A stretch of DNA of 59,398 nt from a virus (IMGVR_UViG_3300005254_000005:1-59398); one strand, 5' to 3'. Counted from the stretch's first letter, positions 17,918-24,142 are shown. Numbers and translations: made by a program. Notes: generated by a model not told the origin, from the sequence alone.

Positions 17918-18040
17918 AACTACCTCTCTTTCTTTGGGATTATCATCCCGAATTTCGTTATTTTTTATACCCGCTTAACACTATTTGAAATTTCTGCTTG
18001 CTAATTATGTTGAATATTTTTTATGATTGTCAAGAAAAAA

Positions 18041-18057
18041 ATAATGAATTTCATTAT
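18041..18057. promoter_or_regulatory. Palindromic operator ATAATGAA-T-TTCATTAT between divergent late units
   Basis: Perfect 8-1-8 palindrome; same motif recurs at 34743, 34775, 35221, 49167, 49829, 49863. Confidence 0.7.
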
Positions 18058-18070
18058 TAAAGGGGAAAAG

Positions 18071-19051
18071 ATGGCGAGAAAACTTGAAGGGAAAATTGAA
18101 ACAGACACACCACAAGGTGATGTTGAAGGTAAAGATTCTGCAATACTGTTCAAGGGTTACGCCAAAACAGTCAAGATGAAAAAGGAGTTTTTGGCTGAGT
18201 ATCCTAAGCAGAAATACAAGATGAAAAAAACCGCATACGCCCTTGGCATGACACCCGGGACGGTTACGTCATGGTGCCTGGATGACCAAAAATTCAAGGA
18301 TGCGTATCTTGAATTGAAAGCGAAGCGTTTCAGGCTGCCACCAAAAGAACTAAGTAGCCGTAATTATGCCAAATATAGCCCCACCACACCCCTGTCCCCT
18401 GAAGAAGTTGCCGACCTTAAGGAAGAATTTATAAAGCTCTTCGATCAAAAACAATTTTCCCTCGCGCAATGCTGTAAACAAATCGGCCTGTCTATGGGTT
18501 TGGCCCGGAATTGGTTGGCAGGCGATCCAATCTTTAGGAAAGTATATCAGCAAATCGCCAATGAAAAGCGAGGGTTCACTGATGAGGACGGCAACTTTAA
18601 GCCAGAAATTAGAGACAAAGCCCAGGCTGGAATACAGGCAGCGCTAGCGGAACGGCAAAACCTATTCCTGAAAACTTACCTGGATACGGCATTCAATATC
18701 ACCGAAGCATGTAAAGTAACGGGCGTCATGAGATCCACATTCAGATTGTGGCTCAAAAAATATCCCGAATTCGAAGAGCGGTTTTCCGAAGCCTTTGAAT
18801 CTAAAAAAGATTTCATTGAAGACAAGCTCCTTGAAAACATCAAGGCCAACGATTCCGCCTGCATCATTCATGCATCCAAAACACTCCTGAGAGACAGGGG
18901 TTATGGGGAAAAACAGGAAATTGAGATCTCCGGAAAATTCGGCGTGATGGTAGTCCCGGGGAAGGTTGAAGATGTGGCATCCTGGGCCGCCAAGGCGGTC
19001 ACTCAGCAACGAAGACTAAGGGAAGCGTCTGTCCATGAATTGCATGAATGA
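18071..19051 (+). CDS. terS: Terminase small subunit with three tandem HTH-like modules
   Basis: Upstream of TerL; LLRDRGYGEKQEIEISG C-terminal motif; three FL..AC..G....W....PxF repeats. Confidence 0.75.
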   Translation: MARKLEGKIETDTPQGDVEGKDSAILFKGYAKTVKMKKEFLAEYPKQKYKMKKTAYALGMTPGTVTSWCLDDQKFKDAYLELKAKRFRLPPKELSSRNYAKYSPTTPLSPEEVADLKEEFIKLFDQKQFSLAQCCKQIGLSMGLARNWLAGDPIFRKVYQQIANEKRGFTDEDGNFKPEIRDKAQAGIQAALAERQNLFLKTYLDTAFNITEACKVTGVMRSTFRLWLKKYPEFEERFSEAFESKKDFIEDKLLENIKANDSACIIHASKTLLRDRGYGEKQEIEISGKFGVMVVPGKVEDVASWAAKAVTQQRRLREASVHELHE

Positions 19052-22000
19052 CGAAAACCAGCCTGAAATCATCTGGGCGCCACAGGAAGGAAGCCAGGAG
19101 CTTTTCCTTTCCTGCCCGGTTTATGAGGTCCTCTATGAGGGGACTCGCGGGTGCCAGAAAACCGATTCGCTCCTGATGGATTTCGCCCAGGACACCGGTC
19201 AGGGATACGGAAGGGCGTGGCGGGGGATCATTTTCAGGAGGACCTACAAACAACTTGACGACCTTATCGAACGCGCGAAACACTGGTTTTACAGAATATT
19301 TCCGGGAATCCGATACAACGAAGCGAAATATGTATGGACCTGGCCGGATGGGGAACAGCTGCTGTTTAGGCATATGCTCAATATTTCGGACTATGAAAAC
19401 TATCACGGGCATGAATATTCAAGCTATCATAAATGTTTGGTTGAATATTCAAACGGAAAAAAGGTGGAAGCAAGACATGTTAAGGTTGGGGATGTGATCC
19501 AAACGCTTGATGGTCCGCATCGCGTCCTAAAGGTATTCCATTATAAGAAGCACGCGATTGAACTTTCATTGTTCGATTCGCATTCGAATTTAATCGGTCG
19601 GCAGCTTCAGGGGATATTGCACCCTGTTTTGACCACCGCCGGATGGCAGCGTTTAGGCTTGTCCTGTTTGTCTCAAATTTCGCCGCAATCTTCGTCATGG
19701 GAACCCCTATCGAAAGAAGTTGAAAAATTTCTCCTTGGAATTCATCGAGAAATAATAGCTTCTTTCTATTTGATGCTGCAGAATCCTCTGGACGGTTCCA
19801 TCTCGCGATTGAATCAAGTACAGTTTTCATCCTTACGCCAAATTTTGAACCAATTGCGCGATACGTCATACCGTTATGACGCATTTCCAGGATCTGTTCT
19901 CTGTAGGGGTCAAGATAATGAGCAGGTTTTTGCTTCCGAGCCAAATACGGAAAACGCCTTCTCATCGTCCCAATCGAACAGCCAAAATGTTCAGCAACTT
20001 GCTTCATTGTGTGCGTCTTCAACAAATCTCTTACTATGGATTCATCAAGTTCGTGCTCGTCTGATCCAATCCATTTTATCTCGTGGTTTTGGCAGATGTT
20101 CTTCACGGTTGAGACTGAAATCCCTGTTCGGTCCGCAATCATTTTTCGAGATACAGAGTAATTTTTTGCAGCCTTTCTTATCGTCTCTATCAATGCAGGG
20201 TCAAATTGCTTGGAATGATACCTTCTCATGTGCTCAGTTTTTGAGGCAAGAAGCGCTAAGTTCTCTGGACAATTGTCAGCACGAATATGATTCAAATGAT
20301 GGCATTCTTCTTCGGGTTTTAGGAACCGACCAATTTTCTTTTCCATCAAGAAACGATGTTCAAGAACCTTCCCGTGCGAGTCTGCGTAAGGATGTTCACG
20401 ACACAAAACAGACCTGTAACCATCGTGGAAATAATTCGAACGCCTATACCCATCCTTACACCCATGAATTTTGTCAAACAACTGTGCCATTGAAACCATA
20501 TTGTTTTTCTGTTCGAGCATTGCCTGGATCTCCTATACCAATGGTTGACTTCATGATTGAAAAATCCAACCATTATATAACACACTTAATGCCCAATAAT
20601 CAAGGGCAAAATGGTAGTAATTCTATTCAAGTAGTAAACAGTAATTCTTATATCGCCTTCGAAGAACTCACCAACTGGCCCGACGACAAATGCTACGAAA
20701 CCATGAAGGCCTGCTGCCGATCCAGCCGCCCCAATATGCCCCGAAAATATCGCGCAAATACAAATCCTTGGGGGGTGGGACGATGCGTTCCTTTCGGTGA
20801 AGTTTTAACGCCTGACGGATGGAAAGATATTCGAGATTTCTCAGTAGGAGACGAAGTGTTCACGGTCACCGAAGGAAGGTGGCTAAAAAAAACTAAAGTC
20901 GACCAGATGCATGCTGAAGACTTTGAAGGCTATCTTTGCAATGTTGGCATTAGAGGCCTTTCAATGCATTGCACCGAGGATCATAGCGTGGTTGCCCTGC
21001 CTACGCCAAAAAAACATCCAGATCACATTAAGCTTTATCCTTTCAGTGAACTTCCTGGCCAAGCATACATTTTGAAATGCGTTAGATATATGCCCGAAGT
21101 AACTCTTGATTACTTCGTAGTCCCCACAATAAAAACTCGAAAAAGAAGGATCAAGCAACCAAGCCAAATTCCCTACAAATACTATGCGGAACTCATGGGA
21201 TGGTGGCTTAGCGAAGGCTGTTGCGTAGATCGAGACAAGGCTTTCGTTATCACTCAAGTAAACATCGAAGGCCAACGGCAAATCGAAAATCTCCTGCAAC
21301 GTTGTGGATTTAAATATTCTAAAGTAGGCAAAAACTTTACTTGCTATGCTCCGGATTGGTGGGCTTACTTAAAACAATTTGGAAAATGTTATGCCAAATT
21401 CATCCCCAAGCCACTAAAGGAAAGCCATTGCTTGAAGCCCCTGTTTAATGCCTTGGTAGATGGGGATGGACACTGGGTTATCCCTGGACGATCGGGACAT
21501 TTCTATTCTACTTCCCTTAAACTTATTGATGATTTTTCGGAAATTGCCATTAAACTTGGTTTTGCTGTGTCCCACACTTCTCGCCTGAGGAGCGATAGGA
21601 CAAGAAGGGGCTATTGCGTTCTTTTCAAAACTTTAAAAACTAATTCATGCCAAGTTCTCACGGGAAATCATCGATATAACGTTGCTACGAAAAACGCAAG
21701 AAATGCAAATACACAAAAATATTGGTTTAGGGGTAAAATTTATTGCCTTGGGATTAAAGACACCAATACCTTTCTTTTAAGGCAGAATGGTTCGGTTTGG
21801 GTTAGTGGAAACTCGTGGGTCAAACGCTACTTCATCGATCCGGCGCCTCCCGGCGCCATTATGACGAACAAACAAGGCGAGCAACGCGTGCGTATCCACG
21901 GCACGATCTATGAGAACAAGGCCCTCATGCAGGCCGATCCCGATTACGTCAAGCGCCTCGAATCCATCAAAGACGTCAATAAACGCAAAGCCTGGCTGTT

Positions 22001-22718
22001 CGGCGACTGGAACGTCGCATCCGGAGGCCCGCTTGAGGATTATTGGGACGAAGCGACCCATGTTGTCGAGCCATTTAAGATCCCCTTTTCCTGGTACGTG
22101 GATCGATCCTTTGATTGGGGGTCTGCAAAGCCCTTTTCGGTCGGTTGGTGGGCGCAAAGCGATGGATGTGAGGTAACCCTTACGGGTGGGACAAAGAGAA
22201 CATTTCCGCGGGGTACGCTGTTTCATATCTATGAGATGTATGGGTGGAACGGGAATGAAAATGAGGGATGCAACAAGCTGGCCACCAAAATTGCCGAGGA
22301 GATCAAGGAGGCCGAAGCATCGGAGGATTTCAAGAAGATTGCTGGAGACAACATTGTCCATATCGGACCCGCGGATTCTGCCATCTTCGACGAAGTAAAT
22401 GGCATGTGTATTGCCAAAGACATGAAGCGAAAAGGAGTGACTTGGGCAAAGGCAAAAAAAGGGCCTGGCAGCCGGAGACAGGGCCTTGAAAAGCTGCGTC
22501 GCTACCTGGACAATGCCACCAAATTTCCCATGGAGGAGCCCGGCCTGTTCATATTCTCCAATTGCAGGCATTTTATCCGGACAGTTCCTTCCCTGCCGAG
22601 GAGTATAACCAATGTCGAGGATGTCGATACCAATGCCGAAGATCACGCATATGATAGTTGCCGTTATCGCCTGACCGCTAAACGTTACATAAATCGTCAA
22701 CAGGAAAAATATAGATGA
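19035..22718 (+). CDS. terL: Terminase large subunit precursor with two inteins (about 475 aa after splicing)
   Basis: Walker A-like YEGTRGCQKT, spliced Walker B YHGHEY/SYIAFEELT, ANTNPWGVGR/SWVKRYF, nuclease DRSFDWG and EDHAYDSCRY. Confidence 0.93.
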   Translation: MNCMNDENQPEIIWAPQEGSQELFLSCPVYEVLYEGTRGCQKTDSLLMDFAQDTGQGYGRAWRGIIFRRTYKQLDDLIERAKHWFYRIFPGIRYNEAKYVWTWPDGEQLLFRHMLNISDYENYHGHEYSSYHKCLVEYSNGKKVEARHVKVGDVIQTLDGPHRVLKVFHYKKHAIELSLFDSHSNLIGRQLQGILHPVLTTAGWQRLGLSCLSQISPQSSSWEPLSKEVEKFLLGIHREIIASFYLMLQNPLDGSISRLNQVQFSSLRQILNQLRDTSYRYDAFPGSVLCRGQDNEQVFASEPNTENAFSSSQSNSQNVQQLASLCASSTNLLLWIHQVRARLIQSILSRGFGRCSSRLRLKSLFGPQSFFEIQSNFLQPFLSSLSMQGQIAWNDTFSCAQFLRQEALSSLDNCQHEYDSNDGILLRVLGTDQFSFPSRNDVQEPSRASLRKDVHDTKQTCNHRGNNSNAYTHPYTHEFCQTTVPLKPYCFSVRALPGSPIPMVDFMIEKSNHYITHLMPNNQGQNGSNSIQVVNSNSYIAFEELTNWPDDKCYETMKACCRSSRPNMPRKYRANTNPWGVGRCVPFGEVLTPDGWKDIRDFSVGDEVFTVTEGRWLKKTKVDQMHAEDFEGYLCNVGIRGLSMHCTEDHSVVALPTPKKHPDHIKLYPFSELPGQAYILKCVRYMPEVTLDYFVVPTIKTRKRRIKQPSQIPYKYYAELMGWWLSEGCCVDRDKAFVITQVNIEGQRQIENLLQRCGFKYSKVGKNFTCYAPDWWAYLKQFGKCYAKFIPKPLKESHCLKPLFNALVDGDGHWVIPGRSGHFYSTSLKLIDDFSEIAIKLGFAVSHTSRLRSDRTRRGYCVLFKTLKTNSCQVLTGNHRYNVATKNARNANTQKYWFRGKIYCLGIKDTNTFLLRQNGSVWVSGNSWVKRYFIDPAPPGAIMTNKQGEQRVRIHGTIYENKALMQADPDYVKRLESIKDVNKRKAWLFGDWNVASGGPLEDYWDEATHVVEPFKIPFSWYVDRSFDWGSAKPFSVGWWAQSDGCEVTLTGGTKRTFPRGTLFHIYEMYGWNGNENEGCNKLATKIAEEIKEAEASEDFKKIAGDNIVHIGPADSAIFDEVNGMCIAKDMKRKGVTWAKAKKGPGSRRQGLEKLRRYLDNATKFPMEEPGLFIFSNCRHFIRTVPSLPRSITNVEDVDTNAEDHAYDSCRYRLTAKRYINRQQEKYR
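19419..20645 (+). mobile_element. Intein 1 (409 aa) in TerL, hosting an antisense HNH gene
   Basis: Block A SSYHKCLVEYSNG, VKVGDVIQT, block B LHPVLTTAGW, block F MVDFMIEKSNHYIT, end VVNSN/S; removal restores the Walker B region. Confidence 0.85.
19480..20520 (-). CDS. HNH endonuclease with four C-terminal HTH-like modules, nested antisense inside intein 1
   Basis: GKVLEHRFLMEKKIGRFLKPEEECHHLNHIRADNCPENL HNH signature; AGGAGA 8 nt before ATG. Confidence 0.88.
   Translation of the reverse strand: MLEQKNNMVSMAQLFDKIHGCKDGYRRSNYFHDGYRSVLCREHPYADSHGKVLEHRFLMEKKIGRFLKPEEECHHLNHIRADNCPENLALLASKTEHMRRYHSKQFDPALIETIRKAAKNYSVSRKMIADRTGISVSTVKNICQNHEIKWIGSDEHELDESIVRDLLKTHTMKQVAEHFGCSIGTMRRRFPYLARKQKPAHYLDPYREQILEMRHNGMTYRAIGSKFGVRMKTVLDSIARWNRPEDSAASNRKKLLFLDEFQGEIFQLLSIGVPMTKIAAKFETNRTSLNAAIRRWSKQGAISPEAADRLNSNANRTMKVQSRASYNGIPLGRDADHQAFGSHPQP
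20784..21812 (+). mobile_element. Intein 2 (343 aa) with LAGLIDADG endonuclease
   Basis: CVPFGEVLTPDGW start, CTEDH block B, LMGWWLSEG and FNALVDGDG helices, IYCL...VWVSGN/S end. Confidence 0.92.
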
Positions 22719-22729
22719 GGAGAGATGCC

Positions 22730-24142
22730 ATGGCTATGACAAAAGAAGAGCTGCTCAAAACGAACAAGGTTTACGACGGCATGAAAGAACACTGGGAATT
22801 CTACAAAGCGGCCTACGAGGGCACAAAGGCCCTGATTGAATGGGGCGTCCTCCGTCAATTCGAAGACGACGTTGAAAATTACAAGGCGAGGAAAAAAGCG
22901 GCCTTCGGCTTCAATTATTCCCGCAGGATCATTAATGTCATTTCGGACTTTCTGAGCGAGGTGCCTTTCCTTGAAGACCATGGTCCGATTAAGAATTCTG
23001 AATCATGGATATTGTTTCTGTCGGATTGCGATTTGTTCGGAACAAATTGGAATAACTATTGGAGCCACAAGAGACGGTGGGTCAGCATTTTCGGCAGCTA
23101 CGGAATCCTTGTGGATAAGGCAAAGTCTGCATATGATAACGTGGATGAGGAAATCAAACGCGGAATTTACCCCTACATGGCCTCCTACTCTCCACTCCAC
23201 ATCCTTGACTGGAAGTATCAAAGAAACCAGGTGACAAATCGGCCGGAACTCACTTATTTAAAACTGTATGATGATGATGGCACGGTTCGAATATGGACAC
23301 CAAAAAATTGGGAGGCCTGGAAGATTCCTGAAAAAGAAGATGAGGAACCGTCTCGAGTAGGTGGAGCGTCGCATTCCTTGAGCGGCATACCGTTCGTGTG
23401 GATGGGGAATGGCGGCAACAAGGCAAACGTAGCGATGAATCTATCCGGTATCTCAGATATCGCCATGATTGACGCCTCTATGATAAGGGACGCAAGCAAT
23501 TCCGATGAAATCATCACGAATGCGGCATTCCCGATGCTGGCCCTGCCGAAAGAAGCGGAAACTGAGAGTGGAAACAATAGGGAAGTTAAGGTCGGCGCAT
23601 CCCGCATTATTGATTTTGATCCCGATAACAGTGGAGCAAAGCCCTTTTGGATGGAATCGAAAGTCCTCGATTCCATCACGGCCATCATCAAGCTTTGGGA
23701 GAAAAAAAGTGATGAGATGTACGCCATGGCCAACCTCAGCACCTTGAGGGAGATCGCCAAATCCAAGGAGAGGCGAAGCGGAGATTCGATGAAAGAAACC
23801 TTCCGTTTCCTGAATGCTGCGCTGGCTGAAAAGGTGGACAACGAAATAGAGGCGAGGCTTCTTTGCATTAAATATTGGATGGAATGGCAGGGCCTGGAAA
23901 ATCAATTCAGGGAAGTCACCGTATCCCACGAGAAAAAATTCAACGTGGAGAAGCTGATCCTCACCATTAAAGACGCCATGGAGGCAGGAGAGGCGGTTGA
24001 TTCAGATACGTTTAAGGCCGAGATCCAGAAGCTGGTCACCAAAAGGACCCTGCCAAACCTGACGGGCAATAAAATGGTTGAGATAGAAAATGAGATAAAT
24101 CAGAAATTGGGCGTTAAGGAAAAGAACGCCGCTGAAGGATAA
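22730..24142 (+). CDS. Portal protein
   Basis: About 470 aa after TerL; FNYSRRII, YSPLHILDW, GIPFVW, AAFPMLALP motifs. Confidence 0.85.
   Translation: MAMTKEELLKTNKVYDGMKEHWEFYKAAYEGTKALIEWGVLRQFEDDVENYKARKKAAFGFNYSRRIINVISDFLSEVPFLEDHGPIKNSESWILFLSDCDLFGTNWNNYWSHKRRWVSIFGSYGILVDKAKSAYDNVDEEIKRGIYPYMASYSPLHILDWKYQRNQVTNRPELTYLKLYDDDGTVRIWTPKNWEAWKIPEKEDEEPSRVGGASHSLSGIPFVWMGNGGNKANVAMNLSGISDIAMIDASMIRDASNSDEIITNAAFPMLALPKEAETESGNNREVKVGASRIIDFDPDNSGAKPFWMESKVLDSITAIIKLWEKKSDEMYAMANLSTLREIAKSKERRSGDSMKETFRFLNAALAEKVDNEIEARLLCIKYWMEWQGLENQFREVTVSHEKKFNVEKLILTIKDAMEAGEAVDSDTFKAEIQKLVTKRTLPNLTGNKMVEIENEINQKLGVKEKNAAEG

Follow-up and report, generated by a model that had tools for sequence, protein, structure and literature searches.

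That the homing nuclease of an intein can be encoded on the opposite strand has been described before. Antisense LAGLIDADG nucleases are found in the inteins of Synechocystis DnaX, of a Chloroflexus SpoVR-like protein and of some actinophages, observations credited to Gorbalenya 1998 and Gogarten 2002 in the available text of a 2025 preprint by Gosselin, Arsenault and Gogarten, which itself treats inteins with antisense LAGLIDADG or VSR-like nucleases (10.1101/2025.01.02.630785). Here we analyzed a viral DNA stretch of 59,398 bp (IMGVR_UViG_3300005254_000005:1-59398, hereafter the window), in which the gene for the large terminase subunit (TerL), terL, carries two inteins. The best explanation for intein 1, and in our judgment a very probable one, is a Hint-fold intein whose homing nuclease is a separate antisense gene, encoding an HNH domain and four helix-turn-helix (HTH) modules and nested between the splicing subdomains; splicing, expression and homing of this element are predictions drawn from sequence and modeled structure.

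In the antisense-LAGLIDADG inteins, as at this locus, the nuclease open reading frame (ORF) lies on the opposite strand between the splicing blocks while the frame of extein and intein remains open; their proposed origin is likewise an invading free-standing nuclease gene, and their distribution is patchy. The nuclease in the window, however, is HNH_3 with four HTH modules rather than LAGLIDADG, and it occurs in uncultured phages from environmental metagenomes rather than in actinophages or bacteria. Frame-specific selection and a zone of dual constraint are additional features here, which were not met in the available text of the preprint (10.1101/2025.01.02.630785). The TerL inteins covered in that text resemble intein 1 in being non-canonical, with the nuclease in a separate reading frame, and the argument made for them, that splicing must still work because TerL is essential, is the one that we apply; their nuclease family differs from HNH, and the HNH nucleases in the surveyed set, as far as the available text describes it, are in frame only (10.1101/2025.01.02.630785). 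Canonical HNH inteins (Dalgaard et al. 1997, as cited in 10.1101/2025.01.02.630785) also combine Hint and HNH, but their HNH domain is part of the intein polypeptide, whereas the one here is a separate antisense gene with its own start codon and Shine-Dalgarno sequence.

Split inteins with free-standing GIY-YIG or Vsr-like genes between their halves, together with a model for the invasion of inteins by nuclease genes, are presented in the available text of Dassa et al. 2009 (PMC2677866). There, as here, a nuclease gene of the free-standing type sits at the position of the endonuclease domain and phage terminase is among the hosts; gp41-1, the best structural match of intein 1, is one of the split-intein loci. 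Those host genes are divided into two ORFs whose products are joined by trans-splicing, whereas the host frame in the window is continuous, so that splicing would act in cis, and the HNH gene is antisense (PMC2677866). The ShiLan element is an out-of-frame HNH gene hidden in a phage methylase gene, with a GTG start 18 bp into the insertion, a TAA stop within its last four bases and no detected splicing domain; the wording of the abstract apparently places it on the same strand as the host gene (PMC11855218). Both loci hold an HNH gene inside the stop-free frame of another gene, overlooked by gene callers, but the gene in the window is antisense and flanked by Hint subdomains, whereas the ShiLan HNH is described in the abstract as lying in another frame (PMC11855218).

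Free-standing phage HNH_3+HTH endonucleases (PHROGs 7545, 10730, 20891 and 59; Atlas clusters) share the domain make-up and sequence features of the nested HNH gene and are its likely source. They are stand-alone genes, whereas the nested gene lies antisense and has been shaped by the opposite frame, with Phe never followed by Ile, Met, Thr, Asn or Lys. No report of an antisense HNH nuclease inside an intein was found in full-text literature searches, which left supplementary files, including those of the preprint, outside their scope. The original prediction for this locus, made from the sequence alone, could not confirm whether the architecture had been described; to call it nearly unprecedented is too strong given the antisense LAGLIDADG and VSR-like inteins in the available text of the preprint (10.1101/2025.01.02.630785). 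The arrangement is already known for these two nuclease types, and HNH-HTH in a large environmental TerL intein family is the new part.

The window is an entire single-contig assembly. The only public run that contains it is a DNA run labeled as a sediment metagenome, and no RNA run is listed for it. TerL is encoded by a single continuous ORF of 1227 amino acids (aa), i.e., the host gene is not broken in two as it is for split inteins. The features of the locus are as follows.

19035..22718, plus strand: TerL ORF, 1227 aa.
19035..19418, plus strand: TerL N-extein, aa 1-128, ending in YHGHEY; colinear with intein-free TerLs, with a PHROG match.
19419..20645, plus strand: intein 1, aa 129-537, 409 aa, Ser1...VVNSN, with Ser538 (20646-20648) at +1; missing exactly from intein-free TerLs, site occupied in all relatives.
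19419..19649, plus strand: predicted N-terminal Hint subdomain, aa 129-205, with the block A nucleophile and block B (QGxxHPxLT); from conservation, AlphaFold2 (AF2), Foldseek and TerL-frame variability.
19560..19862, both strands: apparent dual-constraint zone, TerL aa ~176-276, equivalent to HNH aa ~221-320; from codon-position variability and AF2.
19863..20444, plus strand: TerL-frame stretch, aa ~277-470, probably in the main a by-product of the antisense gene; stop-free, Leu/Ser/Gln-rich, without family matches.
20445..20645, plus strand: predicted C-terminal Hint subdomain, aa 471-537, with YxHPYTxE, block F (MVDFxxE..NHYIT), a variable F-G linker and block G (VVNSN); from conservation and AF2.
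19480..20520, minus strand: antisense HNH-HTH gene, 346 aa plus stop, putative homing endonuclease; ATG start; from Pfam, PHROGs and relatives.
20203..20430, minus strand: HNH nuclease domain, HNH aa ~31-106; from PHROG HNH families (aa 31-106), Pfam HNH_3 (aa 55-99) and HNH-frame variability.
19600..20187, minus strand: four HTH DNA-binding modules, HNH aa ~112-307; from Pfam.
19480..19554, minus strand: non-conserved 24-aa tail and stop of the HNH ORF of the window; from the alignment; reaches into the N-Hint coding region.
20529..20534, minus strand: Shine-Dalgarno AGGAGA, 8 nucleotides (nt) upstream of the HNH ATG; on the plus strand, these positions encode the Ser/Thr-Pro dipeptide that precedes block F.
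20646..20783, plus strand: TerL extein segment between the two inteins, aa 538-583, with the Walker-B-like YIAFEE; aligned with relatives and empty alleles.
20784..21812, plus strand: intein 2, aa 584-926, 343 aa, with an in-frame LAGLIDADG and Ser927 at +1; absent from L001, ZQG1 and P0045 at GxGx/xWVK.
21813..22718, plus strand: TerL C-extein, aa 927-1227 plus stop; 84% identical to intein-free P0045.

The limits of intein 1 follow from natural alleles that lack it. The intein-free TerL of the Pseudomonas phage ZQG1 reads YHGHAY-PWIGWEELTNW and NPYGKGH-NWVK, where the TerL of the window reads YHGHEY-(409 aa)-SYIAFEELTNW and NPWGVGR-(343 aa)-SWVK. P0045, which among the collected proteins is closest in its exteins, lacks both insertions and reads YHGHEY-PFIAFEE; its length of 475 aa equals 1227-409-343. 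Thus, the predicted coordinates 19419-20645 coincide with an exact gap in both proteins. Moreover, PHROG phrog_979 (terminase large subunit) matches TerL aa 8-130 (E 3.9e-27), and empty alleles are colinear across the intein 1 site in ZQG1, P0045, P0046, P0048 and P0051 and in 78 of 80 loci of a second TerL lineage. Cys134 was considered as the first intein residue and rejected; because it is Gly in L001, the nearest intein-bearing relative, Ser129 was taken instead. Empty sites have Pro at +1 in 76 of the 78 loci of the second lineage (the others have Gln and Gly) and in four parsed neighbors of the window, whereas carriers have Cys or Ser, suggesting that the codon for the +1 nucleophile travels with the element and that insertion comes with replacement of an extein codon. 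The empty junction had been predicted to be YHGHEY/SYIAFEE; natural empty sites instead read YHGHEY-P-(F/W/Y)I. A search of the source DNA run, which gave its own contig plus three small pieces of unrelated sequence, revealed no joint spanning the intein and hence no co-existing empty allele.

The ends of the insertion carry the signature of a splicing domain. With the TerL-frame insertion as query, a full HMMER scan of 1.84 billion representatives found 41 proteins at E ≤1e-3, 12 of them at E ≤1e-10; about 10 of the 41 align nearly end to end, and all that were inspected are TerLs with the insertion at the identical site. The first intein residue is Cys, Ser or Thr in 10 of 10 aligned inteins and in all loci (Ser129 in the window), the last one is Asn in nine of the ten and Gln in one, and +1 is Cys or Ser throughout. 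In P0007, the intein ends in ..VNSQ/C, with an atypical Gln instead of Asn. Across a 48-row alignment, the block-B His (intein H68) is invariant in 48 of 48 rows, as are G24, T29, P346 and Y347, while D377, H385, Y386, N407 and N409 are conserved in at least 90%. An AF2 model built from these 48 rows (mean pLDDT [predicted local distance difference test] 76.5, predicted template modeling score 0.71) superseded an uninformative one based on a 2-row alignment (pLDDT 32.7). Its N-part (intein aa 1-77; pLDDT 93-98) and C-part (~aa 340-410 of the intein; pLDDT 87-96) are both beta-rich. When this model was compared with PDB by Foldseek, inteins and Hint domains made up nearly all of the ~45 top matches listed; the best among them was the gp41-1 intein (E 3.6e-4, probability 1.00), and the others include PI-SceI domain I, the DnaB, Prp8 and RecA inteins, the hedgehog Hint domain, BIL and Vint. 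The Pfam Hint-domain family Vint matched the N-end at E 0.001 and matched 5 of 10 family members (best E 2.8e-6), below cut-off in both cases, and a PDB sequence profile search with the intein alignment gave a weak match to the gp41-1 intein (E 0.036). The top match of that search, a designed WD-repeat protein, was treated as spurious (repeats of ~7 bits each). By predicted structure and motifs, insertion 1 is an intein for which splicing is predicted, and the N- and C-terminal splicing blocks of the original prediction appear as conserved motifs on a modeled Hint fold. A profile search of both frames, which had been proposed as a check, returned HNH and HTH on the minus strand, while Hint on the plus frame was recovered only below cut-offs.

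Between these ends, the plus frame shows no nuclease in Pfam or NCBIfam, as had been expected of a middle without an endonuclease motif. Its composition (Leu 12%, Ser 15% and Gln 10%, compared with 5%, 4% and 3% in the exteins) agrees with the predicted richness in Ser and Gln, to which Leu has to be added; Phe, at 6% vs 5%, is not enriched. Two helices, at intein aa 94-121 and 126-154, are modeled with a pLDDT of ~85-96, and one further helical part lies at ~aa 178-233 (pLDDT 66-92); over TerL aa ~277-470, pLDDT is mostly 39-68, with segments below 50, the exception being a helix at about intein aa 181-220 (71-92). Residues E100, V101, F104, L105 and G107 of the intein are invariant in 10 of 10 plus-frame sequences. 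Separately, the linker between blocks F and G (window 20560-20630; L009-L020) is variable, comprising 15-45 residues rich in Asn, Gln, Ser and Asp, while P0016, P0024, P0030 and P0031, which are distant relatives, have block G directly after block F. Linker DNA is AT-rich (over the 130 nt preceding the HNH ATG, GC content is 0.23-0.38) and could contain an HNH promoter.

The minus strand of the same DNA encodes the nuclease. The 346-aa ORF (19480..20520) lies wholly inside intein 1 (19419-20645), as the original prediction stated, and its domain make-up likewise agrees: Pfam HNH_3 covers aa 55-99 (E 1.5e-5), and Pfam HTH families (HTH_28, HTH_23, HTH_7, Sigma70_r4_2, HTH_Crp_2 and others) match at four places, about aa 114-145, 158-190, 203-243 and 265-307. 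HNH endonuclease families of PHROGs match with a best E of 4e-17, and the Atlas look-alikes of the protein are viral HNH_3(+HTH) clusters; PDB sequences searched with the HNH alignment yielded no more than two HTH matches, both weak. All nine sequences, with identities down to 36%, retain the catalytic set H74, H75, N87, E96 and H97, as well as H55 and R56, without change. AGGAGA, predicted 8 nt before the ATG, is present at 20529-20534 on the minus strand, and a Shine-Dalgarno sequence (AGGAG or AGGTG, 6-10 nt upstream of the ATG) is found in all seven intact lineages examined. By eye, TTGAC/TTGAT-like hexamers can be seen in the F-G linker of several lineages; these were not counted as evidence. 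The ORF of the window extends 24 residues beyond the conserved end ...NSNxNRxQKV (or ...KQKL), which is used by seven sequences, the exceptions being the window and P0001; because substitutions in this tail (TerL aa 149-174) follow the TerL frame, we read it as read-through. The HNH ORF is thus a putative homing endonuclease of the HNH_3 type with DNA-binding HTH modules, for which cleavage is predicted.

With first the HNH protein and then the intein alignment as query, DNA of nine further lineages, ten with the window, was collected. An intact antisense HNH gene is present in eight of the ten (the window plus seven). The L001 group has a 320-aa antisense HNH at 60% identity by tblastn (63% in the HNH alignment); L013, L014, L017, L018 and L020 have versions of 312-324 aa counted from the first ATG (phmmer E 1e-57 to 1e-113), and in the more distant L021/L022 the stop-to-stop length is 275 codons (E ~1e-47). 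The antisense ORF of L015/L016 is interrupted by one TAA, at residue 180 of 335, and in L019 the nuclease part is gone while the HTH part survives; terL is open in both cases. It would have counted against the nuclease gene if the antisense ORF were broken in relatives, but breakage is confined to these two lineages, one by a single stop and one by loss of the nuclease domain. In a word-index search of 5.8 billion protein clusters, only two HNH relatives were found, both on contigs shorter than 1.8 kb. Gene callers do not report nested antisense ORFs, which accounts for the near-absence of HNH relatives from protein clusters. No relative turned up in genome contigs, whether the HNH protein or the intein alignment served as query, or in viral sequences scanned with P0030, and a metagenome scan in which relatives were sought returned only the L001 lineage again. 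In the phage record collection, no full-length HNH relative was found, with one partial match at 21% coverage, and on the TerL side only short N-extein DNA matches.

That both frames are stop-free over more than 1 kb had been noticed from the sequence; synonymous shuffling excludes chance as the cause. Opposite the 346 HNH codons, the TerL frame contains 0 stops, whereas synonymous shuffles of the HNH ORF have a mean of ~11.5 TerL-frame stops (range 3-22; 0 of 20,000 shuffles below 3), and the remaining two plus frames contain 17 stops each. In the reverse test, synonymous codon shuffles of the TerL frame gave 1-19 stops in the HNH frame vs 0 observed. Supporting this conclusion, seven intact lineages have 0 TerL-frame stops vs shuffle means of 12-18 (0 of 3000 shuffles each), L021 and L022 have 0 vs 8-9 expected, and all ten lineages keep the TerL frame open. 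A 307-aa antisense ORF in the C-extein (21777-22700) was tried as a comparison and set aside, being a codon-complementary 'shadow' frame with a geometry unlike that of the HNH frame. Further long antisense ORFs lie in the TerL C-extein or the portal gene, at 23254-23868 on the minus strand (204 aa) and at L001:2374-3270 (298 aa); all three look like ordinary shadow ORFs, unlike the HNH ORF, the frame having been checked for 21777-22700.

From the coordinates, the first codon position of TerL pairs with the first of HNH, the second with the HNH third, and the third with the HNH second, so that selection on the two proteins leaves distinguishable traces. Between the window and L001, differences per site at TerL positions 1/2/3 are 0.26/0.13/0.58 in the N-extein and 0.32/0.13/0.44 over aa 129-205 of the intein, whereas in the middle (aa 206-470) they are 0.34/0.42/0.27, peaking at TerL position 2, the wobble position of the HNH codons. 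Across seven lineages in 20-codon windows, variability is of the TerL type up to aa ~205 and again from aa ~489, and of the HNH type (TerL position 2 highest, position 3 lowest) in every window from 269 to 468; the N-Hint coding region follows the order third > first > second position in the TerL frame. When the DNA was threaded on the HNH alignment, HNH aa 41-220 showed third (0.46-0.65) > first > second position (0.25-0.32), while over HNH aa 221-320 (TerL aa ~176-276) variability at the wobble position does not exceed that at the first and second (0.23-0.47). Plus-frame pairwise differences over TerL aa 269-468 amount to 68%, i.e., identity is low. The comparison of terL alleles per strand that had been suggested thus yields TerL-selected ends and an HNH-selected middle: judged from these alignments, selection is handed over between the frames, ~180 codons are selected for HNH with a TerL frame that is merely open, and ~100 codons (TerL aa ~176-276), plus ~40 at the other end, look constrained in both.

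Within the dual-constraint zone, the plus frame encodes block B and both confidently modeled helices, and the minus strand the third and fourth HTH modules together with the C-end of HNH. The description of the whole middle as filler probably holds in the main for aa 269-468, with their HNH-type variability, and fails for the ~100 codons at aa ~176-276, which appear constrained in both frames and are partly modeled as confident helices. Mutual imprints extend to single codons. Because Phe followed by a codon starting with A forces a TerL-frame stop, as worked out from the genetic code, the dipeptides Phe-Ile, -Met, -Thr, -Asn and -Lys are excluded from HNH; in the nine HNH sequences, which are related rows, 0 were observed vs 29.7 expected from residue shuffles, and all nine sequences lack them. 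Moreover, the HNH Shine-Dalgarno sequence is the antisense of a Ser/Thr-Pro dipeptide before block F.

The distribution of the element among TerL alleles was addressed with a quick IQ-TREE tree (LG+G4) of 69 extein rows, 51 of them empty alleles and 18 carriers with intein 1 cut out. In this tree, P0045, an empty allele, is the sister of the window (support 100), and P0048, also empty, that of L009 (support 93); the remaining 16 carriers group apart in a deep clade (support 100), and a minimum of three gains or losses of intein 1 is required. The empty rows had been picked as the nearest relatives of the window, so that the deep clade's own empty relatives are unsampled. In the TerL lineage of P0016, among 80 loci retained out of 141, the intein is present in 2 and the same site is empty in 78. 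Judged by these alleles, the element is patchily distributed. These results collectively support the core of the original prediction, an intein with a separate antisense HNH gene, through the junction, the predicted Hint ends, the layout in ten lineages, the handover of selection and the patchiness. The nuclease of intein 2 is in frame, as predicted, and LAGLIDADG_3 (E 9.8e-6) matches intein 2 only.

Several observations weigh against this interpretation. Sequence-profile support for Hint stays under the curated cut-offs in all Pfam Hint-type matches, no NCBIfam intein model matched the insertion ends or the whole insertion, and the Foldseek alignments span only ~70-100 columns, one subdomain, with E no better than 3.6e-4. 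Canonical inteins have Thr in block B (TxxH) and a penultimate His; here Gly replaces Thr in block B (QGxxHP), which makes the motif canonical only in part, and Ser or Gln stands in the penultimate position. HNH_3 passes the Pfam cut-off barely (24.9 vs 24.8 bits), and a sigma-70 scan upstream of the HNH ATG found no promoter-like site. Since relatives were recruited through open TerL frames, from protein databases and by tblastn, broken-frame alleles are under-sampled, and the rows behind the multi-lineage counts are related and hence non-independent. Finally, the confident plus-frame helices at intein aa 94-154 indicate that part of the supposed filler may be a real structural element.

That last point bears on the reading in which the TerL-frame middle is a functional folded module, either a helical hairpin spacer joining the Hint halves or a DNA-binding or dimerization arm, with both strands selected over much of the overlap. 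The helices at aa 94-121 and 126-154 (pLDDT ~85-96) and 178-233 (66-92), the invariance of E100, V101, F104, L105 and G107 in all ten sequences, and an HNH wobble position that is not free over HNH aa 221-320 all speak for it. However, the helices have no family or fold match beyond low-probability matches to long-helix channel proteins, TerL aa 269-468 carry the signature of an unselected frame with low plus-frame identity (68% pairwise differences), AF2 can assign high pLDDT to functionless long amphipathic helices, and invariance in one frame partly forces invariance in the other. The possibility raised at the outset, that the middle is a folded, conserved plus frame, thus finds neither a family or fold match nor TerL-type variability, yet retains the helices at aa 94-154; we consider a folded module somewhat unlikely, while noting that it is compatible with the intein and its antisense homing nuclease. 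Alternatively, the intein could be real and the antisense HNH gene a silent relic of a formerly free-standing nuclease, undecayed so far, in an element that descends vertically. Such a relic would suit the lack of a promoter-like site upstream of the ATG, the decay in 2 of 10 lineages, the non-conserved 24-aa tail of the window ORF and the deep clade of 16 carriers, which is compatible with long vertical descent. It is nonetheless improbable, because variability over HNH aa 41-220 follows the HNH frame across lineages that are 36-63% identical, the catalytic residues are invariant in 9 of 9 sequences, the Shine-Dalgarno sequence is kept in 7 of 7 lineages, and carriers are sister to empty alleles.

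Two other readings deny either splicing or homing. If the insertion were not protein-spliced, it would be a tolerated loop, as proposed for the ShiLan element, or a self-splicing intron with an antisense nuclease gene. Hint profile matches are indeed below threshold, and out-of-frame HNH insertions without splicing domains exist, according to the abstract on ShiLan (PMC11855218). However, Rfam searches of 19200-22000 at E up to 1 found no group I/II intron family and nothing else of relevance, and an intron would not need an open frame, which all ten lineages nevertheless keep where 8-18 stops would be expected. A loop of 409 aa directly before the Walker-B-like strand would presumably be hard to tolerate, and the termini show the nucleophile, His and Asn/+1 pattern together with a modeled Hint fold, all of which makes the absence of splicing very improbable. 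HNH genes adjoining terminase genes are common in phages, as the consulted text of PMC3592412 describes, and the HNH protein could in principle be a packaging-associated HNH needed for cos cleavage rather than a homing endonuclease. Yet the whole insertion is missing from the closest TerL relatives (P0045, P0048 and 78/80 second-lineage loci), so that the HNH protein cannot be essential for packaging; with four HTH modules, a location inside an intein and decay in 2 of 10 lineages with an intact terL also against it, this role is hardly credible.

For the Hint-fold intein with a nested antisense nuclease, we propose the following mechanism. First, terL would be translated straight through the antisense of the HNH gene, as the selected openness of its frame suggests; this requirement would keep the TerL frame stop-free and restrict codon and dipeptide choice in HNH. 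Ser129, the block-B His196, Asn537 and Ser538 would then carry out protein splicing and remove 409 residues, and removal of inteins 1 and 2 would restore a TerL of 475 aa, a size equal to that of P0045. The HNH protein would be made from its own antisense message via the conserved Shine-Dalgarno sequence. During co-infection, it would be expected to cut or nick intein-free terL at the conserved site before Walker B that encodes YHGHEY-P-x-I-x-x-EE, and the ensuing repair would transfer intein, nuclease gene and +1 Ser/Cys codon into that allele. The lineages in which the nuclease has decayed while the terL frame stays intact fit the usual life cycle of a homing element. An origin by invasion of a mini-intein by an HNH gene is plausible.

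A more far-reaching version, which we put forward tentatively and rate below an even chance, is that intein 1, rather than a passing accident in which a nuclease gene entered an intein, is the first recognized member of a large and old superfamily of terminase inteins overlooked by gene callers, with at least 41 clusters at 50% identity, all at the site before Walker B. Antisense HNH-HTH and Hint would have co-evolved into a stable two-strand unit, marked by ~100 dual-coding codons, an HNH ribosome-binding site within the codons before block F and restricted HNH dipeptides, and the antisense translation would have been shaped into a helical spacer needed for folding of the intein. If true, this would run counter to the quick decay that is expected of antisense nuclease ORFs in inteins.

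With the locus described here, the HNH-HTH class joins the short list of inteins with a mobility enzyme on the opposite strand, and the antisense-nuclease layout can apparently be old, widespread and selected on both strands. It provides a clean natural case of long antisense dual coding, in which the selected frame switches along the DNA and leaves measurable imprints both ways. It also points to a blind spot of annotation, as fully nested antisense genes escape gene callers, and supports the view that inteins gain nucleases from free-standing genes. As candidates, it offers new site-specific nucleases and a cis-splicing intein that would tolerate a 260-residue unrelated insert.

Other features of the locus and its relatives were also noted. 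Inteins much like intein 2, starting with CVPFGE(V/I)LTP, occur at the identical site in P0008, P0009 and P0012 of a distant TerL clade, and intein 2 is missing from the nearer relatives L001 and P0045; this pattern suggests that it has spread horizontally and separately. P0007, P0008, P0012 and L017:2056-7128 carry three or four insertions per TerL gene (1474-1774 aa), at the P-loop (GGGK/.../TD), before Walker B, at GxGH/C (the intein 2 site) and near the C-terminus (EDH/C...N/C). DNA matches of the window to named phages are only short and weak (~66-73% identity), cover the first ~350 nt of terL and are mostly to Pseudomonas phages. An ORF of 342 aa at 18023-19051 on the plus strand precedes terL and overlaps its start by 17 nt; with its repeated HTH-like segments, it resembles a small terminase or a DNA-binding protein, and its counterpart in L001, in the same position, has 310 aa.

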